IMG/VR virus record: IMGVR_UViG_3300046779_001679
Location: 18,530 to 82,529 of that record
Length of the DNA stretch: 64,000 nucleotides
Direction: 5' to 3' (one strand)
Origin: a virus
Taxonomy: Duplodnaviria; Caudoviricetes
Made by a program: the position numbers and the translations under genes. The notes beneath the pieces were generated by a model. The model did not search any database, was not told where the DNA came from, and saw only the letters and a program-made list of their open reading frames with translations. This document shows, piece after piece, positions 16,201 to 63,243 of this stretch (the stretch's first letter is position 1; each line of letters opens with the position of its first letter).

Positions 16201-16577
16201 GCAGTTGCTGTAGCGTTTAATTGGGCTAAGTCAATATCAGCACGTACTACATATGCACGATTGCTTACACCTAAGAAACTATAAGCAGCCTGGAGACCAT
16301 ATTCGTTTTGTTCTCCTGCATGAATCGGATTATTGTTAGCATCAGTTTTGAAAACTGGTGTGCCAAACGTATCCGACAAATCTTTTTGGCTTGTTAGCAA
16401 GTATACAGTACCGGCATTAGCTTTTAATGTGCCTGGTGCTGTGCCTGTGCCTGCGCCGTTTTGTTTACCTTCTTCTGAGGTAACGATAATTAAAGGGACT
16501 GTACCCGGAGCAGCAGGGGTATAGAAACTTTCGTCTATAACACTAACGCTTACGCCTGGTGAACTTAATTGAGCCAT
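13284..16577 (-). CDS. gp18: Tail sheath protein (T4 gp18-like) with a large internal insertion, 1097 aa
   Basis: SPGVSVSVID, FGTPVF, WFAPAGTRRG, NPLTF, RINVARL..YL, FEPND..TR, DVAIEPVKAVEFIYI. Confidence 0.95.
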   Translation of the reverse strand: MAQLSSPGVSVSVIDESFYTPAAPGTVPLIIVTSEEGKQNGAGTGTAPGTLKANAGTVYLLTSQKDLSDTFGTPVFKTDANNNPIHAGEQNEYGLQAAYSFLGVSNRAYVVRADIDLAQLNATATAPAGAPANGTYWFDTSNTKFGIFEWNSAAATVTGGQTFTNKVPTVITDSTKVDGGGAPLASIGAIGDYAVVATTNLNKIWYKKAKTNTAGGTWVEVGSGDWASSWPTAQGTVSNPTWVSGNTLIINTTPAGAGSTDLDGLIADINSLNIPGITAGKPNGKLELYSTGVDVAVSGTLATLVGLTATTYKAPALQISKHTVVPTYKRSDNMGTANGVATGAVWVKTTTPNLGADWIVKKYSDATLAWTEVPAPLYSNNAAALAGLDPLGGGINLALGQLYVKYNDDEANPTLANFKIYARNGVGATSIKSAVIGSQFPAATYKFTISETVAGSAIPSTPIEIVFTGSATAGDADTLLTALTGALSGSNIVASKTASNEIVISHALGGDIHLVDLDLGGIAAGRPLAKIFSTGVTSNFYNAPTGTADHYVATLWTSEVAGSAFAPASADAPTTTPADGQLWYNSIVDEVDIMVHDGSGWVGYANYVQNQAGGTSTDPAGPIVSASQPTTQSDGTDLANGDLWIDTSDLENYPTIRKFNYLTKKWVLVDSSDQTTEDGILFADARWSTNGRDADAASIADLLASDFLDPDAPDPALYPKGMLLWNLRRSGFNVKRFVKNYIDISLRNTRFGDEPMDTTGFEYNPDRWVSEAANQENGAGTFGRKAQRKVVVQALQALVNSNQQIRDEESRIFNLIATPGYPELIGEMVSLNYDRGITAFVVGDCPARLKADATTLSNWGYNTAGALEDNDQGLVSFDEYLGVFYPWGYTSDNIGNNVVVPPSHMMLRTIALNDQVSYPWFAPAGTRRGGITNATAVGYVDPDSGEFQSVALNTGQRDTLAAIKVNPLTFITGTGLVNYGQYTRAKNASALDRINVARLVIYLRRQFSQLAKPYVFEPNDKITRDEIKGAAESLLLELVGQRALYDYIVVCDTSNNTPSRIDRSELYLDVAIEPVKAVEFIYIPLRLKNTGEIKALG

Positions 16578-18113: not shown

Positions 18114-18881
18114 TTATCCTAAAACAAATGTATAAGGTACGCCGCCTGGCACTAGATTTTCAATTTCTTTTTCTAGCTTTTCAATTTCTTTTTCGCCCTC
18201 TTGTTTTAGGGTTGCACCATTCATTTGAATGCCACTGCCTGGGCCAGCAATGCTAGCAAACTTGCTACGAGCTTCACCTAACTGTAACTTAGCTACAGCT
18301 AAAGCATAGTCATAAAGCCATTGTTTAGCGTAAATATCGTCTAATAATGCCCAGTCTGGACGGTAGTTATACGTCTGGAGCAATATTTGCTCTCCTGCGG
18401 CAAAAGGACGTTGTAAAATAGTTAGCGTATGAGCTTGTTGTTTCCACTTATATTCGATATAACTACCGAACATACGTCCTACTAATTTTTGATACCCTGC
18501 AAACATTTCGTACGTTGCTAGTCCGCCCATCATTGTACCACTTAGCAAATAGGTATTTGTATATGCTAAGTTAAATGGTTCAAAAAGGGTACCGCCTGCG
18601 CCTAACCCACTTCTACTTCCAATTGCACGTCTAAACACATTTCTTACTTCTATTACTTCGTCGGGCAAGCGGTACTCGTTTTGATCCTGGATTAGTTCCA
18701 AGAACATATAGCTTTCTTCAACTGCGCCTGAACTACGCTGTCTATACTTTGTTAAAGCACGATTTAAAGCAATTTCTAAGTGCTTTGGATCAAGTTCAAC
18801 TTCTACCATTCCGTCACCTAGCATGGCGCGGACGTAATCAAATACTTGGTTTCTTTTTTGGACTGCGGTAATTTCAGACAT
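18114..18881 (-). CDS. gp13: Neck protein (T4 gp13-like)
   Basis: LG...VEVELD, Y.LP..VI.V, W...YALA..K..LGEARSKF, G.IQMNG..L..EG..E...LE.E; GGAG SD. Confidence 0.85.
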   Translation of the reverse strand: MSEITAVQKRNQVFDYVRAMLGDGMVEVELDPKHLEIALNRALTKYRQRSSGAVEESYMFLELIQDQNEYRLPDEVIEVRNVFRRAIGSRSGLGAGGTLFEPFNLAYTNTYLLSGTMMGGLATYEMFAGYQKLVGRMFGSYIEYKWKQQAHTLTILQRPFAAGEQILLQTYNYRPDWALLDDIYAKQWLYDYALAVAKLQLGEARSKFASIAGPGSGIQMNGATLKQEGEKEIEKLEKEIENLVPGGVPYTFVLG

Positions 18882-38830: not shown

Positions 38831-41800
38831 TTATCCTAAAAGTAAGAAGTCCATTGCGACTGGCAACCCATTAATACCGCCAGTAAAATTCATGGTAGCT
38901 GAAACATTAATTTGTACACCAGTAGTAGTACTAATACTATTACCAGCAATATAAATTACACCAGCTGTTAGTGTATTTACGTTCAATGCACTTGATCCGC
39001 CGCCAATTTGTGACGCAATGTATGCCTTAATCGCTTTTTGTGTCGGAACAATATTATCACTGTTTGCAGTAAAATATTGATCTGTTGAGAACTGGGTAAT
39101 TGTTGCGCCAGTTCCGCCAAGTGCAACTGAACCTAGTGTTAATGAGTTCAAACCAGCTAAGTTGAAAGCATCAGCATTAATGCTTGCGACACCAGTTGCC
39201 TGTTCAACGGAGAACAGTGTACCTACTCTAAAGTTACCGTCTTGGTCAGTACTTGTATAGAATACACGACCGCCGCCATTTCCTACAGTTTCCTTACTAG
39301 GATCTGGAAGTTGTAACGGTGTATTTGGATAGTTAGTTGTTGTTACGTTACCAGTACCGATACTTAAGAAGTCATGGCCAGTTAATCGAACTTGACTATA
39401 CTTGAGCCTTAGTGTAATGCCAGTGCCGTGGGCAGGAGCATTACCTGCTACTAAGTCTGGGCTGATTTGGAATCTAGCTGTATATGGACTAGATCCACCT
39501 GCCCCATTACCTTGTGTACCTAAGTAGTTAGTAACTTGAACTAACTTGTAATAGTTGCCGTTTAGAGCAATTTGAATGTTTGATCCAGGTGTTGGTTGCT
39601 CTAACAAACCTGCTACGTTAATAAAGTAACCAGTTTGATATTGATCTGCGTACCCGTTACCTTCGACTGTTGCAATAGCAGTAGCATATTGCAAGCCTCT
39701 GTTAACAAAGTTAGGACTTGCAAGAACACCGTTACTAGATCTAACTTGCCATGTTGCGCTCGATGTTTGGTTAGGATCAATAATTTGAATTGTTGGTGCC
39801 GACGGATAACTACTACCTGGCTCAACAACTCTAAATTCGCTAATCTCACCGTTAGTAACTTTTACACGGCCTTGAGCTGTGCAGCCTAAGTTTAGATAAT
39901 TAGTAACAGAAGTGTTTGCCGATGATAACACAACCCATACTGGGCTTGAATTTGGGTTACCGTAAGCGACTTGATACCAGTTAAATGTTGTTGTTAAAGA
40001 ACGTTGCTTCCAGTTAATACCGTCGTCTGATGTAGTAATGATATTGCTAGAAGATGCTGTTGCACAGAAAACGCCTGCGCCGTAAACAACTTTTTGCCAG
40101 GAAGCAGTACCTAGACCGTTGTTTGTAGATAATGTCCAATTAATACCATCTTTAGAGTATGCAAATGCTGACGATCCAGTTGCAACTGCAACAAACAATC
40201 CTTTACCAAATGTTACACTTACCCAACCAAGTGTTGCTGGTAGGGTTCTGCTGACCCAAGTAACTCCGTTGTCGCTACTTGATGCTGCTTGATTTGTGCC
40301 ACTATTAACTGTAACATATACTCCATTACCATAAGCAAGTCCAGTCCATGCTCCGCTAGCAGGAAGTGTGCCGCCTGCTGTCCACGATGCTCCATTTGTA
40401 GAGTATGCTGTGCTTGTTGAACTACTACGTACTGCTACAAACACTCCTCTTCCGTAAGTTAATCCAGACCAACCTCCAGAAGATGGCATGTTTCCACCTG
40501 TTATCCATGCAGACGTCGGATCATCAGTGTATTCGCAAATATTGCCGGCGCTAATTGCTACCCAGCGTCCTGCACCATACGCCATGACGTTCCAAAATAC
40601 ATTATTAGTTCTTGAGCCGCCACTAACAAAAGATGAACCAGTTGTGCTAATTGCAGTGCTAGTACCATTCTCAGGAAGAGCAACAAAATATCCGCCAATG
40701 CCTGTACCTGTGTAGGTAAAGTTTTGTATTGCACCAGTACTTGCATTAACATCGTTAACAGTAATAGTTAAATTGTTAGCAGGTGCTGTGCCGCCAAGGC
40801 TTGTTCCTAGGATAGTTAATACATCGCCGTAACTATACCCAGTTCCTGGATTGTTAGATGTAACAGCATATGATACACCTGTTCTTACAATAGTAAATGT
40901 AGCGTTTGCGCCAGTGCCGCCTGTTGCAGAAACGCCAACTGAACCAGCACCATTATAAGTTTTAATAGTATCACCGTAAACTAGATTGAAATACGATCCA
41001 GCTACAATTGTGCCTTCTGTTGCAGTGTATGCAGGACTTGTAAACTTAACACGTGGTTCAATAATATAAGCGGTAGTTAAATCAAGTGCTGATACAATTG
41101 ATGTACCTGGAATAATGTGATCCCAGCCAACTGCATGTAGCTCTAATGGGCCACCGCCTGATCCAGTACCAACGGTAATCGCTGTTCCACCTACACCAGT
41201 TGACAGGCTAAATGTATTTCCGACGATGTTAACGACATAATAATTAGTGCCAACTGCTACACCTGACATACCTGTTAGTAGAGTTCCGACTAACTGTACT
41301 CTCATATTTTCATATAAGGTTGTAGCATCTGCTACAGTAAATGTAACCGAGCTAGTAGATTGGATAGCAAGAGGTGTAAAACTTTCTTTACCAATTGTAC
41401 CTGATTTTGTACCAGAATTATATGTTAAGAAATATCCAGTTTGTCCAGAACCAGTTCCACTAGTAATAATGATTCTCATACCAACATATGCAGCACTAAT
41501 TGCACTATCAGTTGCAGCAATAGTAATGCTTGTTGCTGATCCGCCTTGAGCTACGTTAGCGATAGATGCATGATCAGCACCACTGCTTAGAATTCGACTT
41601 TCAAATACTCCACCGTCACGGAATTCTGGAGTGTATGCGTCAACTTCAACGTTATATCCAGTACCGCTAACACTAAATGTTGCAGAGTTATAGTTTGAAC
41701 CTGCGTTAGTAAATTCAAGTCTACTTACAGTGTCAACACCGTCAGTAACTACTAAGCCAACTTGTGCTTCATAATAACGGTTATTAACTGTTGCAGTAAT

Positions 41801-44800
41801 TGGCACTTCATAAGTGTCAACACCTTCTGCTAACGATCCATATGTTCCGTAAGAGTTGTTACCGTTTGTAGCACGGATTTTTCCACCTAATTCGGCCAAA
41901 TAACCGGCATAGTTGTAATAACTAAACACAGATACAAGTTCTGTTAATGCATTAGAGCCAGTACACCATACACCAATACCGTCGCTCAATACTTGTGTAA
42001 AGTCGTTTGACACGATTGAACGGTTACCTGCGCTGTGTAACGCACCGTCGATCTTGCATCCAACACATCCTGTACCAAATGTAGTTACGTTTTGTACGTA
42101 TGGAGAACGAGGTGTAATCCATACATTGCTGTCTGTTGGACCGTAACCAGGATCTAGAGATGCATAAGCACCTGCGGTTGGACGTTGTGTTCCGTAAGCA
42201 TTTGCAGTACCTAATACACCATTTAAACCATTCAATGTCATATTACGAAGGCCTGTGCCGTTACGTAAGTAGAACATATCAGATAATTGTGATCCAGTAA
42301 TGGCATGATTATACAATGTTGCAGCTCTTATTGACTTATAGTTACCTAAGTAGTTGATGTCATAAATCAATGCATCAATATATGCTGCCATATCTCTCTT
42401 ACAAGCAACTTCGTCAAAGCTGTAAGATACTGTCATAGAACCACTAGCAGTAATTACTTCAAATACTGTTGAAGATCCCTGGATTGGTGTAAGAGTAAAG
42501 GTAACTAACGACGGTGTTGTTAGAACATAGTAAGTTGTACCAGAAGTTACATTTCCAAATAAAGATCCGCCAGTAAATTTAACAGGATCACCAACAGTTA
42601 AGTTATGTGCAGACGATGTTGTAAATTCGTTTGTTCCAGATGTTGTATTTGTAACAGTGCCACCGAAGCTAGCATTAACCCATGCAGTAGCTTCGTTTGA
42701 TAAGAATGATTTATTGATTCTTAAAATTTCAGCGCCATTGATAGTAGCTAGTACATTGTTATATTCATTAGTGCCACATGTTTCAACATTTCCGCCGACG
42801 GTACCTGTAATAGAACCGGTTGCGTCTACGTTAGTCATTGCATTTCCGCCATACGTATTAGTAATTCGAATTGTCGTTGCATCGATAATCGAATGAATCC
42901 AGTATTGCTGGTTTGCTACAATCATGCCTAGTGAACCTGCAAACTTAACTGGAAGACCTGCGTAAATTCCAGTAGTCGACGACACAATAATATTGCCGCC
43001 AACTACTGTATCTGTGACAGTAATTGTAATAACGCCGGCAATAGTTTCAATAATATCGTTAATAGTTTCAACAGCTTGTGCTGCTGATCCATATGCTGCA
43101 ATTCGTTTTGCTTTTTGTGCAATAAAATTAATCGCACCAATTTCAGCAGCAAGCTGGGTGTTGAGCACCTCTTGAGCTGTTGCTCGGTGATATGCCATAC
43201 CCGCCTTGATACTATTAAAATTTGTACCAAATAATACGTCGTATGCTATAGCTTCAACAATTAAACCAGCATCTCTTGAGCATAAGGCCGAATTAAAGTT
43301 CATTGATTGGTAGAACTTGTTAACCCAAGCAACTGTGTCTGATTGAATTTCACTCTTAGCAGCAATCAATGCGTTAAATGCATTTTGTAAATCAGAGCTA
43401 AATGTATATGCTGGATATGCTAGGACTGACGGGCTTGTTCCGCCGCTAGTAATTGTTGCAATAATTTCATCAATTCTTGCTTGTGCAAATGTTGACGATT
43501 CTGCAGAGCCAGCAGTACCGCCTGTGTTTTGAACCAGTGCTGTTGATTTAGTCCAACTTGTATTTTCTGTGATTACATAACCAACAACGTCAGCTAAATG
43601 GTTGTATGCTGCAATTACTTCATCCTTTTCTCCTGCGCCATAAACTCCTGCGCCGTTGGAGAAATATGCATTAGCTGCAATTCTAGTTTGATAGTTGCCT
43701 CCGTATGTTAGGTCATAAATTAATGCGTCAATGATGTAACCAACATCGGCTTCGCAAGAAGCAGTATTGTAAGTAAAGGATCCAGTAAATGGAGCAATTG
43801 ACCCAGCAACTTGATCTGCAATCCATTCGGTAATTTCGTTAATAATAAATGTTTTGTTTAGAAGTAACTGGTCTTTTGCATCACCGTATCCAATTAGGAT
43901 AGAAGTATTATAACCAGTGTATTCAGTATACTCAAAGTCTGGTAAAGAACCAATACCGTTTGCCACAATTTCAGCAACAGTACCTGCACTCTTAAGAACG
44001 GATGCTACAGCACTCGTGCTTCCAGTATTTCCAACAATGTTTGATAGGTATTGTTGAGTTTCAGTATTTCCACTAGTTGGAGTTATTGGGTTATTTAAAA
44101 CTAAGTCAGGAATAATGTTTTTAATTCTATTCAGAACGCTGATAGTTTTTGGTTTATCGTTAACCAAGTTTGTGTTTGCCGGTGCTGGCTGAACAACGCT
44201 TGAGCGTAATTCGTCACCTACAATTGCTGTGTTTCTAGGAACAACAATTGGTAATACTTCGTTGTATGTCCCTGTCTTTACACTAATAGTTGTTCCAGGG
44301 TTTACTACAGCTGGAATAGCACTAGTTGTACCAGCTTCGAGGCCAGTAATAACAATGTCGACTAAGTTACTAGTAATAGTTGATGCGTTTTCTTCTGCTA
44401 CTAAACTAAGATCTACAATTTGTATAGCTTGGTTAGCTAATAATACACCATTTAAATCCTGATAGTTTACTGCTGGTGCAGTATTGCTAACTACATTTTC
44501 GATCAATGTTTTTACGTATTCTAAAGTGCCAGTAAATGCTGGAATGTCATAGTCATTAACACCAGCTACATAATCGTTGCCAGCAGCATTAAAATATGCA
44601 AGTGCAGTAGTAGTAGTTTGTAAAGTTCCGCTATGGCTTAGGTCAAATGCTACAGCATCAACCATAATTCCGGTATCTCGTTCAGTTGAGGCTTCGCTAA
44701 ACACAAATGTTCCAGTCATTGATCCAGCACCTGCTGACAACGAACGAGCTCCACCGCCTAAAGTATTAGAAACTTTGAAACTTGTATTTGCAGTAATGCT

Positions 44801-46882
44801 ATGTACATAGTATGTTGTACCTGCTACAACACTCCCGACAGTACCAGTAAACACAATTGGCATGTTAACATAGATGCCAGAAGTGTCTGTAGTTAAAAAG
44901 TCAGTAGCATTTGCTGCTGAAACAATAACTTTAAATGTTTGAGAAACATAGTTTTTTGCTTCTTTAATAATGAATTGTTTATTTTTTCTTAACAACTCAG
45001 TTGCATTTGGATTTAGATAGCCGTCCTCGATTTGTTTGGCAGCAAATCTTACAGATTTCCAAGGCTTATCAATCGTTAAACCTTGACCGTTTCCAGTAAC
45101 ATCTGCGCCAGAGTTTGCAACATACACGACATTATTGATAACACCAAAATAAGTCCAAGTTGGTTTTTCTCCTACTACGCGAAGAACTTGGCCATCGGTG
45201 CCAATTGGCAACCTTGTTGGGCCAGCACCGCCATAGTACAACGTATCGCCTTGTGTAGTTAAGATTGATGTGATCGAACCAACTGCTAATAAGTTCCAGT
45301 AGCTACCAGTAGTATCATTATCTGGTCTATTTAAAGTTGCACCAACGTGTGCTTGAGTACAAATATATGTGTTTACACCGAATGCAACAGAGTCACCTAA
45401 TACATATGCGGTACCGCTAGCCCAAGTAACTGAAAAACCAGCCGGTGATACCGATTGCACTGCGCCGCCGCTGGCAGTAACAGTTAACAACAAGTCGTTA
45501 GCAGGAGTAATACCGCCTAATAAGTCACCTGTAATCTTAATAATGTCGCCGGTTGAGTAATTAATACCTGCGCTACCAGCGTGTACAATTACTTCGTATT
45601 TTGTGTTTAAAAGAGATACATCAAATGTTGCTCCGGAACCTGTACCTAAAACGTTAGTTCCGCCAACATTAGTAAATGATTGTCCTGTTGCAGCCCATTT
45701 AATTCCGCTGTTTAATCTTGACCAGTAAACTCCAGCTGGCGGAATATTACTTGGCCCAGCAACGTGATCTACTAAGGCAACATATGTGTAGCCGTTTAGT
45801 CTAACAACTTGCCCTACTTTATATTCTGTAGCAGTAGTCCAATCTCCCTGGAAACTAAAACCAGTAGTAAACAAGTCCCAATCTGATGTGCTAGATGTAG
45901 GTATTACATTCGTATTGTTTGTCTTGGAGATATATGCATATCCGCCATAACTAACAACGTCACCCGGTTGATAAATTCCAACGTTGGTCCAACTGTTCTC
46001 ATATTCTAATCCGTTAACAAATAAAGACCAGTTAACTTCGGCAAATGTAGAACTGCTGGTGTGCGGTGTAACACAAATCCATAGGTCTGAACCAAACTTA
46101 ACAATATCGTTAACTTTATAACGAACAGTGCTTGGGCTCCAATCGCCTAAGAATTCAATACCTTTATGGAAATAATCCCATAGTCCTTGGTCGTCTTCAA
46201 GGCCTAAAGAAGCAGAAGCTGCTGATTTGTGCCCGGTGTTACATACGTAGGTTGTACCACCGTAGAGTACAACGTCGTTCTTTTTATATCGATAATTTGC
46301 AGACCAGTCGCCGATCCAGCTAAACCCAGTGGCATATTGATCCCACTTGCTAAGATCTGCTTCTAACCCGTCAGAGTCAGATGTTGCTGTAGCAGAAGAT
46401 TGATGGCCGGTATTACATACATAAGAAATTCCGCCATATCTAACTACGTCGTTAATTTTGTATCTGGTGCTAGTGGCCCAGTCGCCTTTCCAATCTAAGC
46501 TAGCTGCGTAGAGATCCCACTTAGTAAAGTCAGCTTCTAAGCCAGCAGTGATATCTGGGCTAGTTCCGGAGTTAGCAGATGCATTACTTTCATGGCCTTC
46601 ATTACACAAGTATACTCTTCCACCATACTTAACTAAGTCGTTGACTTTGTAATAAGTGCTAGTAGTCCAATCACCTTTCCACTCTGAACCGTCTGATACT
46701 TGATTCCAACGTGCCGGAATGTTATCTAAATCTGTATAAAAGTCAGCATCAGCAACGTGCCCAACAACGCAGGCGTATGTTTTACCGCCGTATCTAACAA
46801 TATCATCTTTAACGTATGTGGTTCCAGTAGTCCAGTTATTTTTCCAAACAAAACGGATTCTACCTAGTTTATATTCAGCCAT
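38831..46882 (-). CDS. Giant modular virion protein (2683 aa): W-rich repeats, beta-helix, helical CxRD domains, beta-propeller
   Basis: Paralog of 46948-52788. YVANSG.D...PWKSVRFA / KTGTYNEVLP / GDELR / SPYVQNVT beta-helix motifs; W..(V/L).YG.G.FVA propeller repeats; TAAATA box (46909-46914) and GGAG SD. Confidence 0.85.
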   Translation of the reverse strand: MAEYKLGRIRFVWKNNWTTGTTYVKDDIVRYGGKTYACVVGHVADADFYTDLDNIPARWNQVSDGSEWKGDWTTSTYYKVNDLVKYGGRVYLCNEGHESNASANSGTSPDITAGLEADFTKWDLYAASLDWKGDWATSTRYKINDVVRYGGISYVCNTGHQSSATATSDSDGLEADLSKWDQYATGFSWIGDWSANYRYKKNDVVLYGGTTYVCNTGHKSAASASLGLEDDQGLWDYFHKGIEFLGDWSPSTVRYKVNDIVKFGSDLWICVTPHTSSSTFAEVNWSLFVNGLEYENSWTNVGIYQPGDVVSYGGYAYISKTNNTNVIPTSSTSDWDLFTTGFSFQGDWTTATEYKVGQVVRLNGYTYVALVDHVAGPSNIPPAGVYWSRLNSGIKWAATGQSFTNVGGTNVLGTGSGATFDVSLLNTKYEVIVHAGSAGINYSTGDIIKITGDLLGGITPANDLLLTVTASGGAVQSVSPAGFSVTWASGTAYVLGDSVAFGVNTYICTQAHVGATLNRPDNDTTGSYWNLLAVGSITSILTTQGDTLYYGGAGPTRLPIGTDGQVLRVVGEKPTWTYFGVINNVVYVANSGADVTGNGQGLTIDKPWKSVRFAAKQIEDGYLNPNATELLRKNKQFIIKEAKNYVSQTFKVIVSAANATDFLTTDTSGIYVNMPIVFTGTVGSVVAGTTYYVHSITANTSFKVSNTLGGGARSLSAGAGSMTGTFVFSEASTERDTGIMVDAVAFDLSHSGTLQTTTTALAYFNAAGNDYVAGVNDYDIPAFTGTLEYVKTLIENVVSNTAPAVNYQDLNGVLLANQAIQIVDLSLVAEENASTITSNLVDIVITGLEAGTTSAIPAVVNPGTTISVKTGTYNEVLPIVVPRNTAIVGDELRSSVVQPAPANTNLVNDKPKTISVLNRIKNIIPDLVLNNPITPTSGNTETQQYLSNIVGNTGSTSAVASVLKSAGTVAEIVANGIGSLPDFEYTEYTGYNTSILIGYGDAKDQLLLNKTFIINEITEWIADQVAGSIAPFTGSFTYNTASCEADVGYIIDALIYDLTYGGNYQTRIAANAYFSNGAGVYGAGEKDEVIAAYNHLADVVGYVITENTSWTKSTALVQNTGGTAGSAESSTFAQARIDEIIATITSGGTSPSVLAYPAYTFSSDLQNAFNALIAAKSEIQSDTVAWVNKFYQSMNFNSALCSRDAGLIVEAIAYDVLFGTNFNSIKAGMAYHRATAQEVLNTQLAAEIGAINFIAQKAKRIAAYGSAAQAVETINDIIETIAGVITITVTDTVVGGNIIVSSTTGIYAGLPVKFAGSLGMIVANQQYWIHSIIDATTIRITNTYGGNAMTNVDATGSITGTVGGNVETCGTNEYNNVLATINGAEILRINKSFLSNEATAWVNASFGGTVTNTTSGTNEFTTSSAHNLTVGDPVKFTGGSLFGNVTSGTTYYVLTTPSLVTFTLTPIQGSSTVFEVITASGSMTVSYSFDEVACKRDMAAYIDALIYDINYLGNYKSIRAATLYNHAITGSQLSDMFYLRNGTGLRNMTLNGLNGVLGTANAYGTQRPTAGAYASLDPGYGPTDSNVWITPRSPYVQNVTTFGTGCVGCKIDGALHSAGNRSIVSNDFTQVLSDGIGVWCTGSNALTELVSVFSYYNYAGYLAELGGKIRATNGNNSYGTYGSLAEGVDTYEVPITATVNNRYYEAQVGLVVTDGVDTVSRLEFTNAGSNYNSATFSVSGTGYNVEVDAYTPEFRDGGVFESRILSSGADHASIANVAQGGSATSITIAATDSAISAAYVGMRIIITSGTGSGQTGYFLTYNSGTKSGTIGKESFTPLAIQSTSSVTFTVADATTLYENMRVQLVGTLLTGMSGVAVGTNYYVVNIVGNTFSLSTGVGGTAITVGTGSGGGPLELHAVGWDHIIPGTSIVSALDLTTAYIIEPRVKFTSPAYTATEGTIVAGSYFNLVYGDTIKTYNGAGSVGVSATGGTGANATFTIVRTGVSYAVTSNNPGTGYSYGDVLTILGTSLGGTAPANNLTITVNDVNASTGAIQNFTYTGTGIGGYFVALPENGTSTAISTTGSSFVSGGSRTNNVFWNVMAYGAGRWVAISAGNICEYTDDPTSAWITGGNMPSSGGWSGLTYGRGVFVAVRSSSTSTAYSTNGASWTAGGTLPASGAWTGLAYGNGVYVTVNSGTNQAASSSDNGVTWVSRTLPATLGWVSVTFGKGLFVAVATGSSAFAYSKDGINWTLSTNNGLGTASWQKVVYGAGVFCATASSSNIITTSDDGINWKQRSLTTTFNWYQVAYGNPNSSPVWVVLSSANTSVTNYLNLGCTAQGRVKVTNGEISEFRVVEPGSSYPSAPTIQIIDPNQTSSATWQVRSSNGVLASPNFVNRGLQYATAIATVEGNGYADQYQTGYFINVAGLLEQPTPGSNIQIALNGNYYKLVQVTNYLGTQGNGAGGSSPYTARFQISPDLVAGNAPAHGTGITLRLKYSQVRLTGHDFLSIGTGNVTTTNYPNTPLQLPDPSKETVGNGGGRVFYTSTDQDGNFRVGTLFSVEQATGVASINADAFNLAGLNSLTLGSVALGGTGATITQFSTDQYFTANSDNIVPTQKAIKAYIASQIGGGSSALNVNTLTAGVIYIAGNSISTTTGVQINVSATMNFTGGINGLPVAMDFLLLG
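45300..46840 (-). repeat. Eight CBM5/12-like aromatic repeats W..(S/N)T.Y...D.V.YGG..Y.C...H
   Basis: Counted by eye in the translation; one Gly-rich beta module is interposed before the last copy. Boundaries approximate. Confidence 0.75.
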
Positions 46883-53523: not shown

Positions 53524-56500
53524 TTATCCGAATATTAATGAAGCAGTGATACCTAAATCATTTGCCTCTGATGTTGTTACACCGCCGCTTGCACCAGCAA
53601 CACTAGCCCAAGTAACTCCGTTATACACTTCAACTAATTGTAGGTCTGTATTAAAACGCATCATGCCCATTTCTGGAACTAGTGGTCGTTGAGTCTGTGT
53701 ATCCCCTGACGGAATAACAACACCGTTGTGTCCTGCAATTCTAACGTATCCTGTTCCCGATTCTAAAAACTCAGTAACGGCATTATTAACTACGTTAGTA
53801 ATTGTGTTATTGAACACCTTTAAGTTTCCTAATCTAACTCCGCCAGTACCTGATGTTGTTAGATTTAAATCACTATTAGTAGTAATAGGTGTAATTGTAT
53901 TACTGTAAATGTCAACGTTTGTAGTCTGGAATCTCTGTGCAAATAAACGGCTACTATCAATAGTTGCTGTTAAGTTGCCGTCGGCATAGAAGTATAATGT
54001 GTTGTCGTTGGCGCCAGGTGTTGCCTCTGCGAGTATTTTTGTATTTCCATCAACGTCTTCAAGACCGCTTAGACGTACCCAATAGCCGTTGTTATATGCT
54101 TCGTATCTTAATAAATCAGTGTTGTAACGAATTTGTCCGTTTGCGGCGTATCCTACATCAGGTCGCTGTGCTGTAGTACCAACTGCTACTTGTAGACTTT
54201 GATTGCTATCAATTACAACACCGCCGGTTCCTTGTGGTGTTAAGTAAATGCTTGAGTTAGGATTAACGCTGTTAATAGTGTTATCAGCAAACATAATACT
54301 TTCGGTAATAACATTACCTGTGCCATTTGCTGTTAATTTTAAATCAGTATTAGTAACAGTTGTGTAAATCTGATTACCAGTGATAGTAATTTGAGGTAGC
54401 TGTAAGTACCCAGATCCAGTTATATTGCCAGTTACTTCAGTATTACCGCTAGTTACAAAATCACCAGTTTGATTAATGTCACCTGTTTGGGTGATAGTGC
54501 CGTTAATCGACATATCTGTTAGATATGAAGTGCCGTATAATACTGAGAAATTCTGATCAACTGTTAAATTTTGATCAATGACTACATTGTTTGACGGGAT
54601 GAAAATTTCACCAGTGCCGTTTGCTGTTAATGTTAAATTATCGTTGTTTGCAGTTGTTTGAATTGTATTTGCATCGATAACTAAACTATCAATCTCTGCT
54701 CTACTAACAAAAACTGTGTTCCAACGTAAAAGATCAGTACCTAAATTGTAAGTTGCAGTAGCTGCCGGAATTAAGTTACTATTAATTTTAGCAACAAATG
54801 TAACAGTATCAGATGACTGGTCACCAATTTGAATGTTACCACCGATGTTAACATCACCAGTTACGTTTAACGTGCCGGTGACGTATGTATTGTTTTGTAA
54901 ATTAATAACACCGCTTGCTGCTGTTACATTAATATCACCAACAACGCTGTCAATATTGTTATCATGGATAACAATGTTTCCAGTTGTTATTTCTGTAGGA
55001 GTAATTGTAGTAGTGTTTACACCGTCAGTAAATGTTACGCCTGCAGGAGTAGTAATACTTAAATTCTGACTATTAAACTCAACGTCGCCTGTTTTCTGAT
55101 TGACAGAAAAATAGTTACCTACTTTAAAATTACCTTCATTGTCAACGCTAGTTCTATAAATGTGTGCGCCGTTTAGCTCAACAACCTCGTTAGCCGAAAT
55201 CCTATCATTAGGATCGTTAGTTGAAAGTTTACCACTGCCTACGTATGCAAAGTTCTGACTTACTAGGTATGCAATAACGCCAACACCGTCGCCGTATGCA
55301 CCGTAATTACCATAAACGTTAGCTGAACCAATTGCACGCATTTCTGCGCCAAAGTCTGAATAGTCTGCAAAATTAATAACACTTGCTGTTCCGCCAGCAC
55401 TTGTTCTTAAATCTTGATAAGTTATACCGTCGTCAAGAATAGTTGTAGAATTGTTTACGCCATTGAAGTGCAATAACAATACAGTTGATAAGTCACCAGT
55501 TAACGGAACGGTAGATACAGTAAAGTTTGATGTATATCTAGCAACACCTTTAGTGATTCTTACGTCATCGAAGTACCCAGTAAATGCAAAATTTCCGTTA
55601 GGGTCTGCACCAATTCTTATAGGTCTTGCTGCATAACTATTGCTGTCAGCATAATTAGAACCAACTTGAACCCCGTTAACAAATGCTCTAGTTACACCTG
55701 CACTTCTTGCTAACGAAATGTGTGTCCATGCATTAATTGGTACAGATCCTACAGGGCCAATGCGATAGTTTCCATTGAAGAAAAAGTACAATGCATTTAT
55801 GTCTGATAAGCCTAATATAATACCGCCAGTGTCACCTGTTGATGATCGTAAATCAAAAATTGTTCTATAAGTGCTGGTTGCTGTAGGGTATAAAAATGCT
55901 TCAATACAAAAATCACCTGTTCCAAATTCAAAATCTGTACTGCTTGTGTATGTAATATAATCACTAGAACCGTCTAATGCTAAACTAGAAACACCGAATT
56001 TATATTGGGCTGTTGATAATTTTGCATCGCCATTGACTGTTGCTGTTTTTCCTACACGGTCAGTAATTGTTTCAAATCCATCACGCTTGCCAGTTAAGTT
56101 AAAATAATCACCATCAATACTTTCAATGGTACCAGATGCAAGGACTGTAGTCCCATCAGTATCATAGTAAGAAACAGTATTTCCAACAGCCCAAGTTCCT
56201 GAACGATTGTCAATTCTTAATCGAGTAAGACCTGCACCTGCAAAACCATCATTGCTAGTATATAAGTAAAGACCTTTATCTGCAAAATAGGTAAACGAGT
56301 TTAACCACTCAATTCTTGCACCGTTAGTTGCGCTAATAGCAGTTCTATTAGGAGTAATAAATGTCGAAGAGTGGAAAAGCATTGATGCTTCTCTAGAAGT
56401 AGAGTTAGCATATGCTCCGTCGATATACGCTCCTTTACCAGCGTCGCCTGCATCAAAACCGTATGGATCCGAAACGCTAGTTGTGCTGCCTCTTGTAATT

Positions 56501-57816
56501 ACTGTAATATTTCGAATATAAGGACTACGTGTTGTTACAACAAAGTCTGTTGCAAAACGGAATGCATATCCGTTATCGGGGAATACTCGTGTTCCGCCGT
56601 TACAGCTAAACGTTAAGTTTGATAAAAATATTGTTAAGCCAGTTGCGTCAGGTCCGGCATGTGTTAAAACTACTGCACCTGTCGTATGATCGTATGTTGC
56701 ATTTGTAATAGCATAGTTGGTGCCGCTAATATTAATTGTGCCACCACTCACATATGCATGTGCAAATGGGGCTGTTCCAACATTGATAGTTGTAGATCCG
56801 GCACTTGCTGTTACTACTGAAAAATAATTTCCGCCGCTAAAGAAATCAGTAATTGCTAAATCTTCAACTGTTGTTTCGCCGGTTACTAAGAACGCATCGT
56901 TATATCGTGTAGCAGTAGTTGGTTTAATAGTAACTGCTCTAATGCCAGCGCCTCGAACAGTAACGCCTTGTGGTACAGTTAAGGGGAACTCTTCCTCGTA
57001 AATTCCAGGATAAATGTAAACAGTTGATCCGGCTGTTGCTAAACTTAGCGCATGTTTAACTGTTGCTAATGGGTTATTTTCATGGACACCTGCGTTAGCA
57101 TTGTTACCATTTGTTGCAACATAATAGATATTTCCTTGCGGTAAAGCTAACTCAATGTTATCAACAATTAAACTATTAGATGTAATAGTGGTAGCAACAA
57201 TGTCCTGAATGTAGGATGTTTTCCACGATTTTCCGCCAGTTAACGGATCGCTACCTAAGTCGTATGTGTTTGTTATATCCGGTACAATATTACTGTTAAT
57301 ATCTGCATTAAAAACAATATTGTCAGTATTATCATCACCAATTTGAATATTACCGTCAGCAGTAATAGTTCCGGTTGCGTGCAAGTCACCGTTAACAAGA
57401 ACATTGCTATTGATGTTAACTTGGCCAGTGCCAGATGTTGCAATTGTTAAATTAGTATTAGCCGCAGTAGTACTGATTGTATCTTCAGTAATTTGCATGT
57501 TGTTGTTAACAACTAGCTTACCTTGATACAATACTCCGTTAGTGCCACTAGGCTCTAAACTAATTGTAGAATTTGTACTAGAAATTGTGCTACCGCTAAC
57601 TGTAAAGCTAGCAATATCTGCTTGTGTAGTAACTTCTAGATTTGTTGTACGGGTAGTCCCGTTGATTTGTAATTCAGTAGAAGGAGCCGCTGTCTTAACA
57701 CCAATACGGCCGTTAACAACGTCCAAATAGAGTAAGTCCGTCTCGAAGGCTAAGTTTGCCCCTTGTCGTAAGAGGTTTGCCTTTAAGAGCGGGCCCGTAA
57801 TTCGACCAACAGCCAT
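53524..57816 (-). CDS. Virion fibre/baseplate protein (1430 aa) with a beta-helix and a LamG/ConA-like insert
   Basis: GRI(T/S)GPLL..NLLR shared with 57975-61133; YYVATNGN..P.ATVKHAL, SPYIRN(I/V)T; LamG-like GDFCIEAF..WTHISLARS..FVNG..IG..F.GYFDDVRITKG.ARYTSNF at about 55470-56030. Confidence 0.8.
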   Translation of the reverse strand: MAVGRITGPLLKANLLRQGANLAFETDLLYLDVVNGRIGVKTAAPSTELQINGTTRTTNLEVTTQADIASFTVSGSTISSTNSTISLEPSGTNGVLYQGKLVVNNNMQITEDTISTTAANTNLTIATSGTGQVNINSNVLVNGDLHATGTITADGNIQIGDDNTDNIVFNADINSNIVPDITNTYDLGSDPLTGGKSWKTSYIQDIVATTITSNSLIVDNIELALPQGNIYYVATNGNNANAGVHENNPLATVKHALSLATAGSTVYIYPGIYEEEFPLTVPQGVTVRGAGIRAVTIKPTTATRYNDAFLVTGETTVEDLAITDFFSGGNYFSVVTASAGSTTINVGTAPFAHAYVSGGTINISGTNYAITNATYDHTTGAVVLTHAGPDATGLTIFLSNLTFSCNGGTRVFPDNGYAFRFATDFVVTTRSPYIRNITVITRGSTTSVSDPYGFDAGDAGKGAYIDGAYANSTSREASMLFHSSTFITPNRTAISATNGARIEWLNSFTYFADKGLYLYTSNDGFAGAGLTRLRIDNRSGTWAVGNTVSYYDTDGTTVLASGTIESIDGDYFNLTGKRDGFETITDRVGKTATVNGDAKLSTAQYKFGVSSLALDGSSDYITYTSSTDFEFGTGDFCIEAFLYPTATSTYRTIFDLRSSTGDTGGIILGLSDINALYFFFNGNYRIGPVGSVPINAWTHISLARSAGVTRAFVNGVQVGSNYADSNSYAARPIRIGADPNGNFAFTGYFDDVRITKGVARYTSNFTVSTVPLTGDLSTVLLLHFNGVNNSTTILDDGITYQDLRTSAGGTASVINFADYSDFGAEMRAIGSANVYGNYGAYGDGVGVIAYLVSQNFAYVGSGKLSTNDPNDRISANEVVELNGAHIYRTSVDNEGNFKVGNYFSVNQKTGDVEFNSQNLSITTPAGVTFTDGVNTTTITPTEITTGNIVIHDNNIDSVVGDINVTAASGVINLQNNTYVTGTLNVTGDVNIGGNIQIGDQSSDTVTFVAKINSNLIPAATATYNLGTDLLRWNTVFVSRAEIDSLVIDANTIQTTANNDNLTLTANGTGEIFIPSNNVVIDQNLTVDQNFSVLYGTSYLTDMSINGTITQTGDINQTGDFVTSGNTEVTGNITGSGYLQLPQITITGNQIYTTVTNTDLKLTANGTGNVITESIMFADNTINSVNPNSSIYLTPQGTGGVVIDSNQSLQVAVGTTAQRPDVGYAANGQIRYNTDLLRYEAYNNGYWVRLSGLEDVDGNTKILAEATPGANDNTLYFYADGNLTATIDSSRLFAQRFQTTNVDIYSNTITPITTNSDLNLTTSGTGGVRLGNLKVFNNTITNVVNNAVTEFLESGTGYVRIAGHNGVVIPSGDTQTQRPLVPEMGMMRFNTDLQLVEVYNGVTWASVAGASGGVTTSEANDLGITASLIFG

Positions 57817-57950
57817 TAGCTCTCCTTATACCCCGTGTTGCACGGTTAACCAATTTTGAAAGTAAGCGCGACCAAACTCTCGCATCCCGAAGGCTCTTTG
57901 CTGGTTTACCACAGTTTAATATCGGGAACTTAGGTCTAAGTTCCTCAGTA
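57817..57950 (-). ncRNA. Candidate structured 5' leader RNA (multibranch fold) upstream of the 1430-aa gene
   Basis: 8-bp hairpin, 13-bp outer stem, C(UUCG)G and GCGA/UCGC branches, and a competing CCGUG/CACGG hairpin, between a late box and the AAGGAG SD. Confidence 0.5.
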
Positions 57951-57954
57951 AAAG

Positions 57955-57962
57955 TATTTATC
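57955..57962 (-). promoter_or_regulatory. Late-promoter box GATAAATA
   Basis: Just after the stop of 57975-61133, heading the structured leader. Confidence 0.65.
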
Positions 57963-57974
57963 GCTTTTGGATTT

Positions 57975-60900
57975 TTAGCCCAGGATGAGGGCCCATTCGT
58001 CCATTATATCAAGGACTTCGTCTAGAGGTGCTGCGCCAGATGTACCAACCGCTGGAATCCAAGCAACTCCGTTAAACACTTCCATATATCCAATTTCTGT
58101 GTTATATCGGGTTTCTCCTTCTTCCGGAGTTAGGCGACGTTGGCTGTTATTACCATACGGTAATACTACTGCTCCTGTGCCCCCAAACTTGAACCAGCCG
58201 TTTCCTGTACTTTGAAGAACAAGTGCAGAATCAAGCGTATTTGTAATCGAGTTGTCTTTTAACAAAATGTTATTAACGTTAAGATACCCAGTGCCAGTTG
58301 GCTGAATTTCAGTATCGGCATTGATAATTCTGTTGTGTATAGTATTGTTAGAAATATCAAAATCACCAACACGAAGAGTTGCGTTAAACAGTTTTGTAGA
58401 GTCAATTGTTGATTTTACAACATCGTTAACTACAAATCTTAAAACGTTATCGTTTGACCCAACTGTTAGTTCAGGTGTAATATATGTCTTTCTGTCAGAA
58501 CTATACACGTTCCTAAATGCTTCGTTGCCGTACGATTGATAACCTTCGTACTGCCCAGTTGTGCTATTTTGTCTAATCTCACCCGCTGCTGACAACACTC
58601 TATTAGTGCTGTTTCCTATTGGCACTTGGATATATTTGTTAGAATATACAACAGTGTTGCCAACTCCTGTAGGCTTAAACACAATACTTTTTTGTAAGTC
58701 AGTTGTTGCACTTTGCCAAACGTTACTAATTGTGCTGTCTACAATTTTTAATCTATTATCAAGAACAACACCACCAGTTCCGTTTCCAGAAAATACAATA
58801 TTAGAATCTGTTGCTGTTGTTCTTATTTCGTTATCTTGAATAGTTATATCTGGTACTGAGAAATAAGATCCAGTGCCTGTAATAATAATATTATTATTAG
58901 AAAACAGACCTTGAATATAAGTGCTACCTGTTTGATCAATATTCCCTGTTAGTAACACATTTCCGCCGAGACTGATATCTCTTAAACTAGTTAATCCAGT
59001 AGCTGTAAAGTCAGAGTTAACAGCTAAGTCGTTACTAATCTTAACGTTTGATGTAGAAATAACTTGGCCTGTACCTGCTGCACTAAAAATCAAATTATTA
59101 TTGTTTTGATTAGTTGTAATAGTGTTGTTTGTTATTGTTACAATACCGTCTATATCTAACGAAGTATTGTACAAAGTATTCCACACATATGCTGTAGGAG
59201 ACTTAACACCTAAGTTGTAAGTGTTATTAGCACCAGGTTTAATATCTTGTGTCAACTGGGGGACCATTGTCACAATATCAAACTGTGTGTCGCCTAAAAA
59301 TACGTTTCCCTTAATAACAGCATCACCTGTTACAGTTGTAGAACCTGTAACATTAACAGTTGTGTTTAAGTAAGTACTGCCAGATGCTGCTGACAAGTTT
59401 GCAGGACCGATCAATGATTCAACAGTGTTATCGTGAATCTTGATGTTACCTGTTTGAATTTTAGTTGCATCAACAATTGTAAGTTGTCCAGGTCCTGATA
59501 ACGTAATGCTTCCAGTTGCGCTAAAATTAATAGACTGTGCGTTAAAAAATACATTACCAGTAGACTGTTCAACAAAGAATACATCACCTACGCGATAGTT
59601 ACCTTTATGGTCCATGCTATCGAAATAGATTTCACCGTTATTAAGTTTTACAATTTCATTGGCATGTATAGATAGCCTATCATCATTTTCGGAATTTGTG
59701 CCAGAACCTACATAGCCAAAATTATGACCAATTAAGTATCCTAACGTCTGGTCACCGTCTGCTACTGCTCCGTATATACCGTAGACGTTAGCACTGTTAA
59801 TTGAGCGCATTTCTGCACCAAACTTAACACCTAAACTAGCAAATCCTAGTGTCCCATTAGTTAAATGAATTCCTCTGTAGCAGAAGTAAGTAAAACTGTT
59901 TAACCATTCTACCCTAGAACCGTTTGTAGCAGTAATGCCATCGGCATTTGGAAGAATAAATGTAACAGCATGGAAAAGCATTGCTGCTTCGTAACTAGCT
60001 GGGTCAGAAACACTACCATCAACTAATGCACCTCGGCCTGCATCCAATACATCATTGCTAGTAATTACTGTTACATTCCTAATGTAGGGACTTCTTGTAG
60101 TAACTTTACACCCATTAGCAAATCTAAATGCGTAGCCAGTATTGTTTACTGAGTCATAGTAAAAGTTTTTTACTGTTAGATTTTCAACAGTTGTTTCACC
60201 ATTTAATAAAAACGCATCTTTATCATTTGTTAATGCTGTAGGAAGGATAGTAACTGCTCTAATTCCGTTGCCTGTAACTGTAACACCTTGAGGAACTGTT
60301 AATGGAAATTCTTCTTCATATGTTCCTGGAAATATGTAAACAGTGTCACCGGTGCTTGCAACAGACAATGCGTGCTTTAATGTCTTAAATGTTGAATGTA
60401 CGTGATCACCGTAGTTTGTATCTTTACCGTTAACACTTACATAATAAATGTTATTAGTTCTAAACAGTAGGTTGATATCATTTACAGTAACACTAGGTGT
60501 TGTAATAGTATTAGCAAATACCTGCTCAGAATATAAAGTTTTCCATTGCTTTAAATTTGTACCTAAATCAAAAGTATTGTTAACATTTGGTATTAAATCA
60601 CTAGCAAAGTCTGAGCTAAAATTAATATAGTCAGTGTTGTCACTACCAATAATAATATTGCCGTCAAAGGTTACATTACCAGTTGCATGTAAATTACCAG
60701 TAACGTTAACTTTTGATGTGTTAAAAACTGTTTGCCCAGTTCCATTAGGCGACAATTCAATGTTATCGTTAGCATTAATTGTCGAGACTGTTCGATTAAA
60801 AAAGTCTAACTTATTAGTTTGTAAATGCTTAGTTGATACTGTAGGATCAGATAATTGATCCGGAGTAATGGTAATAGAACCAGTTAAGTTCTGTATTTTA

Positions 60901-61133
60901 TTTGATACAAAAACTAAATCTGCGATGTTAGCTTTTGTATCAGCAATTAAATTTGTAGTAGTTGTTGTACCGTTAACTTCTAATTCTTTAGAAGGTGTAC
61001 TGGTCTTAATACCTACTTTACCAGAGTTTACATCTAAGTAAAGTAAGTCAGTTTCAAATGCTAAATCCGCTCCGTGGCGAAGTAAATTATTAGCAAGTAA
61101 CGGGCCACTTATTCTGCCTAGTTCTACGCCCAT
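57975..61133 (-). CDS. Virion fibre/baseplate protein (1052 aa), paralog of 53524-57816 without the LamG insert
   Basis: Shared N-terminus, YYVSVNG.D..STFKTLKHAL, SPYIRNVT, AEMRSI.SANVYG.YG, C-terminal G..R(Y/F)NT....EV(F/Y)NG..W. Confidence 0.8.
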   Translation of the reverse strand: MGVELGRISGPLLANNLLRHGADLAFETDLLYLDVNSGKVGIKTSTPSKELEVNGTTTTTNLIADTKANIADLVFVSNKIQNLTGSITITPDQLSDPTVSTKHLQTNKLDFFNRTVSTINANDNIELSPNGTGQTVFNTSKVNVTGNLHATGNVTFDGNIIIGSDNTDYINFSSDFASDLIPNVNNTFDLGTNLKQWKTLYSEQVFANTITTPSVTVNDINLLFRTNNIYYVSVNGKDTNYGDHVHSTFKTLKHALSVASTGDTVYIFPGTYEEEFPLTVPQGVTVTGNGIRAVTILPTALTNDKDAFLLNGETTVENLTVKNFYYDSVNNTGYAFRFANGCKVTTRSPYIRNVTVITSNDVLDAGRGALVDGSVSDPASYEAAMLFHAVTFILPNADGITATNGSRVEWLNSFTYFCYRGIHLTNGTLGFASLGVKFGAEMRSINSANVYGIYGAVADGDQTLGYLIGHNFGYVGSGTNSENDDRLSIHANEIVKLNNGEIYFDSMDHKGNYRVGDVFFVEQSTGNVFFNAQSINFSATGSITLSGPGQLTIVDATKIQTGNIKIHDNTVESLIGPANLSAASGSTYLNTTVNVTGSTTVTGDAVIKGNVFLGDTQFDIVTMVPQLTQDIKPGANNTYNLGVKSPTAYVWNTLYNTSLDIDGIVTITNNTITTNQNNNNLIFSAAGTGQVISTSNVKISNDLAVNSDFTATGLTSLRDISLGGNVLLTGNIDQTGSTYIQGLFSNNNIIITGTGSYFSVPDITIQDNEIRTTATDSNIVFSGNGTGGVVLDNRLKIVDSTISNVWQSATTDLQKSIVFKPTGVGNTVVYSNKYIQVPIGNSTNRVLSAAGEIRQNSTTGQYEGYQSYGNEAFRNVYSSDRKTYITPELTVGSNDNVLRFVVNDVVKSTIDSTKLFNATLRVGDFDISNNTIHNRIINADTEIQPTGTGYLNVNNILLKDNSITNTLDSALVLQSTGNGWFKFGGTGAVVLPYGNNSQRRLTPEEGETRYNTEIGYMEVFNGVAWIPAVGTSGAAPLDEVLDIMDEWALILG

Positions 61134-62210: not shown

Positions 62211-63203
62211 TTAAAATAACATACTGAATAATAGTGCCCTATTCTTTGCTACTAGTTCATCTGCTGTAGTTGTATTTTTAAAGAACAGCCCTGTTTTTCC
62301 TGGGCCAGCAGTTGCTTGCGAATAGATTTTTGTTTTGTTTGGTGTTACTGCAACAGGTGCTGTTTGATCTGTTAGATCGAGCACTGAGTCAATTTCAACT
62401 TCATTTGACGAAGCTGATGTAATGATTAAATTAGATACTCCAGTATTTGTGATAGTATGGTTGTAAAAATTAATATCATCAACACTCAAACCGCTGCTAG
62501 TAATAATTGCTCGTTGATTAGATCCTGTAACCCCGCCAACGTAAAAAATTAAACTAGAAGTTGTTGCTAAAATTTCCGTATCGATTGTTACCGGAAGACC
62601 GTGCCCTTTATAAATTCTGTCAACGTCTGCCTGACCAGATACTACAACACTAGATGTAATGTAGTCGTATATAAATTGCTTGTTAGGAATAGCATTGCCA
62701 GACCCAGCAGTTACACGTAGTGAGTAACTTGAAGGATCTGCATTAACAATTTTAGCAACAACAGGTTCACCTTGCATGTCAAGGTTTAGGTCTGACCCGG
62801 AACCAGCTGCTACGCCAGATACTTGGATACCTGCTAATGTATTATCAGCAAATCGAAATACAAATGTACCTGGATCACTTAATTCTGTAATTTGATTATA
62901 ATGAGTTACAGTCTCATCAAAAACCATTTTTGCATTAGAATAGTCTCCTCTTTCGATCTCAATACCAGATTGATATCCTAAAGATGAACTAATACCGTTG
63001 CCAGTTTGTCCTTTGTTTAGTAGAATAATGTTATCTTCTACTTGCATGTCAGAAACGTTAATGTAAGTAGTGTCACCCCGGACTTCTAGGTCACCCGTAA
63101 TTACAACTTTACCCGGACTTGTCCCGGTGTCAAGCGTAATAATACCACCAGGTTGAACCTGTAGTCGATAGTTGTTTTCACTTACTTTTAGTATCTTTGA
63201 CAT
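62211..63203 (-). CDS. Putative virion fibre/baseplate protein (330 aa)
   Basis: V.ITGDL.V.G.TT......VEDNII.LN.G.....SGIEIERG beta-strand fibre pattern; ends RALLFSMLF. Confidence 0.7.
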   Translation of the reverse strand: MSKILKVSENNYRLQVQPGGIITLDTGTSPGKVVITGDLEVRGDTTYINVSDMQVEDNIILLNKGQTGNGISSSLGYQSGIEIERGDYSNAKMVFDETVTHYNQITELSDPGTFVFRFADNTLAGIQVSGVAAGSGSDLNLDMQGEPVVAKIVNADPSSYSLRVTAGSGNAIPNKQFIYDYITSSVVVSGQADVDRIYKGHGLPVTIDTEILATTSSLIFYVGGVTGSNQRAIITSSGLSVDDINFYNHTITNTGVSNLIITSASSNEVEIDSVLDLTDQTAPVAVTPNKTKIYSQATAGPGKTGLFFKNTTTADELVAKNRALLFSMLF

Positions 63204-63214
63204 TCGTAATCCTT

Positions 63215-63237
63215 AACAGGGGACCGAAGCCCCCGTT
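63215..63237 (-). other. GC-rich UUCG-tetraloop hairpin between genes, with no long U-tract
   Basis: AACGGGGGC-TTCG-GTCCCCTGTT, immediately 5' of the AAGGA SD of the next gene. Confidence 0.6.
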
Positions 63238-63243
63238 GATATA

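Follow-up and report, generated by a model that had tools for sequence, protein, structure and literature searches.

Several described systems, each in part, resemble the leader considered here, which precedes a giant fibre/baseplate gene of an uncultured tailed phage. In the maturation (A-protein) gene of MS2, a segment of the 5' UTR pairs with the initiation region and limits translation of a low-copy virion protein. The present leader likewise contains a 5' segment that, by covariation, pairs with the initiation region; however, MS2 is an RNA phage in which the partner is the Shine-Dalgarno (SD) region, whereas here the partner is codons 4-5 and kinetic control is putative. Leaders of the Escherichia coli ompA type carry a 5'-terminal hairpin that stabilises the mRNA. 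Here, too, a hairpin is located a few nucleotides from the (in this case, inferred) 5' end of a long mRNA, but, unlike in the ompA type, its loop is conserved and pairs with the open reading frame (ORF), and more conserved domains follow. The SAM-II, SAM-V and preQ1-II riboswitches resemble the present leader in their classical H-type topology, loop 1 being short and loop 3 long and able to accommodate an embedded hairpin, and in their conserved loop nucleotides; they differ in that the present leader has no covariance-model match, its SD lies outside the pseudoknot, and it is associated with a single structural gene.

Within the T4-type phages, the gene 32 leader of T4, T2 and RB69 contains, like the leader described here, an H-type pseudoknot with coaxially stackable stems located tens of nucleotides 5' of the AUG, and that pseudoknot is likewise conserved among related phages (PMC3014915). 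A 2010 review of T4 considers it possibly the sole viral pseudoknot involved in translational autoregulation (PMC3014915). Comparison of the two leaders without alignment reveals no noticeable sequence likeness. In gene 32, the stretch between the pseudoknot and the ribosome-binding site is an A+U-rich UUAAA tract, whereas here a hairpin (H3) and a G-rich stretch directly follow; gene 32 encodes a single-stranded DNA/RNA-binding protein, whereas the gene here encodes a LamG fibre/baseplate protein; and pairing of the 5' hairpin with the coding sequence is a feature of the present element, not of the gene 32 leader. The covarying pairing between a leader loop and the coding sequence, together with the freezing of codons, is what is unusual in this element. 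For the late structural genes of DNA phages, few structured cis-regulatory RNAs have been documented.

The locus and the spread of the leader

The window, that is, the whole 64,000-nt stretch analysed here (positions 18,530 to 82,529 of IMG/VR record IMGVR_UViG_3300046779_001679), belongs to a record (G000) of 82.5 kb that is rated 22% complete. The related contigs G001-G004 span 210-270 kb and are rated 60-71% complete, so that the source genomes appear to be large or jumbo T4-like myoviruses, with sizes of ~350-380 kb implied by the CheckV completeness. Identification of these viruses as cyanophages was considered and rejected, psbA being absent from the five records, all of which are incomplete.

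On the minus strand of the window, a 158-nt gap separates a 1052-aa ORF (57975-61133) from a 1430-aa ORF (53524-57816), which is the first of a same-strand run of giant genes. Both flanking proteins match PHROG families annotated as 'baseplate wedge subunit / tail fibre', and Laminin_G_3 is the only Pfam domain of the 1430-aa downstream protein. The two genes are tandem paralogs with a common N-terminal module, G-R-I-S/T-G-P-L-L ... L-A-F-E-T-D-L-L-Y-L-D-V. This GRISGPLL...LAFETDLLYLDV module is found in both paralogs; the leader and the frozen GGUC/CUC codons (see below) are found in one only.

A search with a 20-nt core pattern identifies the leader in at least 120 IMG/VR contigs. The ~170 unique leader variants are all located 5' of one LamG fibre/baseplate ortholog, and each of the core matches listed lies directly upstream of a gene starting with M-A-[IV]-G-R-I-S-G-P-L-L-K. 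A search with a codon-degenerate pattern for the peptide G-R-I-S-G-P-L-L-K, which is independent of the leader sequence, yields 70 more divergent leaders. The leader is kept among orthologs with only 51-69% protein identity and is present in one exact copy per 210-270 kb contig. Some loci (L020, at 3240-3266 and 4449-4475 on the minus strand; L061; L224) contain, ~1-3 kb away, a second gene with the same N-terminal peptide that is preceded by a short leader (TAAATA followed by ~20 nt) rather than by the structured one.

A search of 50,697 cultured phage records recovered no copy of the leader and no close homologue. The N-terminal peptide shows a weak likeness to 'sericin-like' virion proteins of cyanomyoviruses, and the weak homologue in P-SSM7 is preceded by a 30-nt gap with no leader. 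The same core pattern produces 31 matches in 185,579 prokaryote genomes, only two of which are genuine, the others being without the remaining motif. The genuine matches (L144 and L165, in PBPT01000016.1, 335 kb, and PBPT01000082.1, 153 kb) have an identical leader and gene start and come from phage-like contigs of one Neomarinimicrobiota metagenome-assembled genome, RS350 (Tara Red Sea). These contigs are probably mis-binned phage and could provide a hint to the host.

A scan of the window with the 4227 models of Rfam 15 (including SAM-II/V, preQ1-I/II/III, c-di-GMP-I/II, fluoride and ribozyme families) gives no match to the leader at E<=10, and a scan of 11 related loci spanning all length forms gives none at E<=5. 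Full-text literature searches on phage leader pseudoknots, RNA motifs and late-promoter leaders retrieved no account of the element. The leader is a new, uncatalogued RNA family of a known general kind, namely, a structured translational leader. Its covariation is unusually clean, the large or jumbo myoviruses that carry it are an abundant uncultured clade, and it is a candidate for an Rfam family.

Architecture of the leader

The leader is richer in GC than its surroundings (45.5% vs 39.5%), as the first-pass annotation of this DNA had noted. Its characterization there as highly structured is not reflected in the predicted folding energy: the minimum free energy z-scores of the window copy against dinucleotide shuffles, -0.73 (181 nt) and -0.53 (137 nt), are unremarkable, and the minimum free energy fold of the window does not include the 13-bp stem discussed below. 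Given that the window copy folds no better than shuffled sequences, the evidence is comparative and comes from a local alignment of 171 unique leaders and from an alignment of 150 sequences (A4). RNAalifold runs on the subfamily alignments gave little result because of the high conservation and the pseudoknotted structure. Direct examination of the proposed pairings is more informative. When the 5'-terminal hairpin H1, its loop pairing with the coding sequence (PK2), and the two pseudoknot stems, Pa and P2, are taken together, 85.1% of the cells in the 150 sequences are paired, compared with 75.7% in shuffles (0/500), and the covariation score is 0.291 compared with 0.152 in shuffles (0/500), with slid partners scoring at most 0.096. 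Read as the sense strand, the structure contains many G-U pairs, including one Pa pair that is U-G in 140 of the 150 sequences; on the opposite strand these would be C-A, which assigns the structure to the mRNA. Covariation among orthologs, on which the first-pass annotation had staked its proposal of a functional, structured cis-acting leader, is abundant, and the proposal holds. Judging from these comparisons, the long leader of the giant fibre/baseplate gene is a real, widely conserved folded RNA.

All features of the leader are on the minus strand. The sequence contains a T4-type late-promoter box (GATAAATA, 57955-57962), and an NTAAATA box occupies the same position in every related leader. 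Following the geometry of T4 late promoters, we take the transcript to start at A57949, 6 nt after the box and a few nucleotides 5' of H1; with this box just upstream, the structure should be transcribed. H1 (GGAACUUA-GACC-UAAGUUCC, 57925-57944, loop 57936-57933) is an 8-bp hairpin that is supported both by folds and by covariation. Its stem varies in sequence with the pairing retained, double changes being observed in all 10 aligned stem pairs, and its loop is conserved as G-R-C-Y(A). The number of unpaired nucleotides between the presumed start and H1 is 1-2 in most members and ~5 in the window. Variants that lack H1 start exactly at the pseudoknot, directly after the promoter box.

The pseudoknot consists of two stems, both supported by covariation. 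In stem 1 (Pa), the 5' strand UGU (57911-57913) pairs with the 3' strand GCA (57899-57901); in stem 2 (P2), the 5' strand UAAACCA (57902-57908) pairs with a 3' strand (57846-57853) that comprises U, the bulged U57852, and GGUUAA. Since Pa encloses the 5' strand of P2, the two stems form a classical H-type pseudoknot, in which a Pa of 3 bp and a loop 1 of 2 nt (GG, 57910-57909) are combined with a P2 of 7 bp containing a 1-nt bulge, without a loop 2. Pa is canonical in all 150 sequences (UA133/AU12/CG5, GC150 and UG140/CG6/UA4 for the three pairs), so that the first pair, U57913-A57899, occurs as three pair types. P2 conforms to the consensus UWARCCN with N'(1-nt bulge)GGYUAD and shows double changes in 7 of its 7 pairs, e.g., GGUCAACC/GGUUGG, GGUCAGUC/GACUGG, GGUUCGCC/GGCGAG and AGGACC/GUCC; its closing pair is distributed as CG77/AU51/GU13/GC3.

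Loop 3 (57854-57898) is long and A-rich, with conserved single-stranded A, UG and RAA(U), and, as a hairpin survey of the 171 leaders indicates, accommodates optional hairpins at fixed insertion points: 83 leaders have none, 70 have one and 18 have two. The loops of these hairpins are mostly GNRA or UUCG, and the P3 position alone is occupied by 24 different stems. The window represents the two-hairpin form, with P3 (57895-57884) capped by a UUCG loop, as C(UUCG)G at 57893-57886, and P4 (57884-57867) formed by UGCGA/UCGCG (57884-57880 with 57871-57867), and additionally carries a window-specific insert of ~10 nt in this loop. Other conserved unpaired nucleotides of the pseudoknot are AC before Pa and the GG of loop 1. 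The conserved unpaired positions, which would be unneeded for simple occlusion, hint at a bound partner.

Downstream of the pseudoknot, the H3 hairpin (CCGUG-CAA-CACGG, 57833-57845) ends 5 nt before the SD. Across the family, H3 is conserved in position, 5-9 nt before the SD, and falls into two subfamilies, CCGUG/CACGG and GGGA/UCCC, with compensatory changes in each. The SD (AAGGAG, 57827-57822), the spacer and the ATG (57816-57814) of the LamG fibre/baseplate gene follow (57814-57827 overall); in predicted ensembles of nested structures, the SD is mostly unpaired. A pairing of the H3 loop (ACAG) with CUGU was rejected: it finds no support in the loop variants L195 and L200, and Pa already uses CUGU. 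The possibility of a small leader ORF was also discarded: the 19-codon frame of the window and the AUG-UAA frame of the short forms are both not conserved. The leader L193 (IMGVR_UViG_3300021598_000058, upstream of 12093-12119) resembles a natural deletion variant: relative to the closely related L229, it has no promoter, no H1 and no 5' half of the pseudoknot, and retains P3, the 3' strand of P2, H3, the SD and the frozen codons. A recent deletion could account for this, as could an assembly artefact.

This architecture differs from the fold that had been drawn from the window sequence alone. The hairpins named in the first-pass annotation, the 13-bp pairing of 57913-57901 with 57853-57841 (one A-A mismatch and several G-U pairs) and the SD are all present in the window. 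The central 7 bp of the 13-bp outer stem, corresponding to P2, covary, but the outer 5 bp are not conserved: the 5' bases of this extension belong to Pa and loop 1, and its 3' bases belong to H3. The extension itself, UGUGG/CCGUG, is missing in one subfamily, and the change in L044 fits H3 rather than the extension. Similarly, the AAAG-AG/CU-UA-CUUU pairing is confined to the window, and the mutually exclusive folds that had been suggested, in which the 3' strand of the outer stem alternates with the CCGUG hairpin, are possible for the window sequence but do not represent a conserved switch. The suggestion that the region might be a standalone non-coding RNA appears unlikely: between the element and the gene there is no conserved hairpin of the terminator type with a U-run, and the structure enters the coding sequence. 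A terminator scan detects only a weak 5-bp site, within the window-specific part of P4.

Pairing with the coding sequence and frozen codons

Codons 3-5 (GUU GGU CGA) contain the complement of the H1 loop GACC(A), namely (U)GGUC (UGGUC at 57804-57808 of the window), for a helix of 4-5 bp at +9 to +13 of the ORF (PK2). In the 150-sequence alignment, 96% of the PK2 cells are paired, and the loop variants GGCC and GACU preserve the pairing through wobble. A targeted analysis included all IMG/VR genes of the family in which the wobble position of Gly4 is not U, namely, 13 loci from five lineages. All 13 contain GGAC, and a GUCC H1 loop is present in four of the five lineages (L219/L251; L237/L250/L258/L259; L253/L257; and L254), the exception being L174, which has GGAC with no matching loop; the GUCC loop occurs in none of the 159 GGUC genes. 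One lineage (L074, L092/L098, L117) has lost GGUC (GGA AGA) and the GACC loop together, and GGUC is kept by two lineages that lack H1. The covarying replacement of GACC:GGUC by GUCC:GGAC therefore indicates that the H1 loop pairs with positions +9 to +13 of the ORF, and, by the standard of covariation, pairing of this loop with codons 4-5 is shown by the four independent lineages that switched to GUCC:GGAC. An alternative pairing of the H1 loop, with the 3' strand of P2 (GACCAAUUU:AAAUUGGUU), was rejected upon inspection of the alignments: most members of the GGCU subfamily retain GACC, which results in an A-C mismatch, and the GUCC loops misfit the GGUU of the P2 3' strand.

Codon tables for the beginning of the gene reveal synonymous constraint at specific positions: Gly4 is GGU in 97 of 100 genes, Gly8 is GGU in 89 of 100, Pro9 is CCG in 76 of 91, Leu10 is CUC in 87 of 95, Leu11 is UUA in 79 of 100 and Lys12 is AAG in 78 of 98. 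Arg5 is encoded by CGN throughout the table, compared with AGA in the paralogs. Full variability is seen at the wobble positions of Arg5 and Ser7, and Gly, Leu and Pro codons farther into the gene are unconstrained. Codons 8-12 (GGC CCG CUC UUA AAG in the window, 57781-57795) form a frozen synonymous block, and the freezing holds across genes whose proteins have diverged far. About 43 leaderless paralogs with the same peptide encode Arg by AGA and Leu by UUA and so contain neither GGUC nor CUC; the leaderless upstream gene of the window, for example, reads GGC AGA AUA AGU GGC CCG UUA CUU. These observations indicate that synonymous sites at the starts of phage genes can be RNA-structural and that the element extends ~36 nt into the coding sequence.

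Codons 8-12 find their best complement in the SD/spacer region (AAGGAGAGC, -9.4 kcal/mol) in one subfamily and in the 5' strand of H3 (UAGAGGGAC, -9.3 kcal/mol) in the other. One candidate, GGAGAGC of the SD/spacer with GCUCUU of codons 9-11, is complementary in most sequences and was rejected after a permutation test, in which the energy with a gene's own partner is -8.72 kcal/mol compared with -8.66 kcal/mol (255/1000). Variants pair no better with their own SD, and the apparent compensatory cases are not borne out.

Functional interpretation

The interpretation that we favour, with confidence and reservation in about equal measure, is that the conserved cis-acting element, which spans the region from the late promoter to ~36 nt into the ORF, sets a low level of translation initiation and protects the mRNA. 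Under this hypothesis, the fold would close the ribosome-binding region as a compact domain. The loop-codon helix would be located within the 30S footprint and would have to melt before initiation, so that the closed fold should lower the initiation rate. The outcome would be initiation at a low, fixed rate, as suits a very large virion protein of low copy number that is expressed from a consensus late promoter; in addition, the 5'-terminal hairpin would shield the long mRNA from 5'-end-dependent decay, and a factor that shifts the equilibrium might dock on the sequence-conserved pseudoknot. The loop-codon helix is only 4-5 bp long, so the repression could be weak. The element offers a case for post-transcriptional setting of virion-protein stoichiometry or of fibre choice.

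The strong conservation of the unpaired pseudoknot nucleotides, combined with the tolerance of variable hairpins at fixed points only, is also compatible with a protein-binding translational operator, made up of the pseudoknot with H1 and H3, on which a phage protein would dock, either the product of the gene itself or a dedicated regulator. The bound protein would hold the fold closed or open it, analogously to gp32 on the gene 32 leader pseudoknot, and both this precedent in a T4-type phage (PMC3014915) and the restriction of the element to one gene fit such a role. However, the product is a LamG fibre/baseplate-like protein without a known RNA-binding domain, the pseudoknot is not followed by an A+U-rich tract for cooperative binding, and no candidate regulator was found, so we consider an operator unlikely, if still worth serious attention. 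A broader version, in which the pseudoknot does the sensing in a switch of a new class and a ligand, or a protein of phage or host, binds to the conserved loops and toggles both the closure of H1 on codons 4-5 and the state of codons 8-12, seems to us less probable again; if it were true, a jumbo phage could decide the timing or the amount of one receptor-binding fibre paralog.

The proximity of H1 to the presumed 5' end in most members (1-2 nt) and the location of the gene at the head of a same-strand run of giant genes could be explained also if the element were exclusively a stabiliser or scaffold of the mRNA, acting against RNase E/RppH-type decay without an effect on initiation. Such a stabiliser needs no conserved loop, no covariation with codons 4-5 and no sequence-conserved pseudoknot, and some lineages that lack H1 retain the other parts; this explanation is accordingly held to be improbable.

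We regard a further set of functions as very improbable: an RNA-polymerase-modifying leader (put- or EAR-like antitermination), a self-cleaving ribozyme or a DNA-level recombination linker. Compatible with these are the position of the element at the head of a multi-gene, one-strand block of giant genes, the combination of conserved junction nucleotides with variable stems, and the location between two hypervariable fibre paralogs with common end modules. Nevertheless, the codon 4-5 pairing and the frozen codons point to translation, none of the ribozyme families gives a match, the frequent sense-strand G-U pairs exclude a signal in double-stranded DNA, and freezing at specific positions, with the Arg and Ser wobbles left free, speaks against homogenisation by recombination.

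Least probable of all, with hardly any expectation attached to it, is the riboswitch-like element named in the first-pass annotation, here with the pseudoknot as a small-molecule or ion aptamer and H3 plus the coding block as the expression platform: the conserved loop nucleotides and optional inserted stems do recall the SAM-II/V and preQ1-II architectures, and codons 8-11 could alternatively pair with the SD or with the H3 5' strand, depending on the subfamily, but there is no Rfam family at E<=10 or E<=5, the element always lies 5' of the same structural gene and never of metabolic or transport genes, the SD is outside the pseudoknot, and the alternative pairings do not covary.

Elsewhere in the window, several giant virion proteins (including those encoded at 38831-46882 and 13284-16577) have a similar hydrophobic C-terminus, ...(L/I)(L/F)G*. 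A GGGGC-UUCG-GUCCCC hairpin is located at ~63204-63243 (minus strand), between two minus-strand virion genes and just before an SD; lying upstream of ORF 62211-63203, it could be a terminator or a stabiliser.
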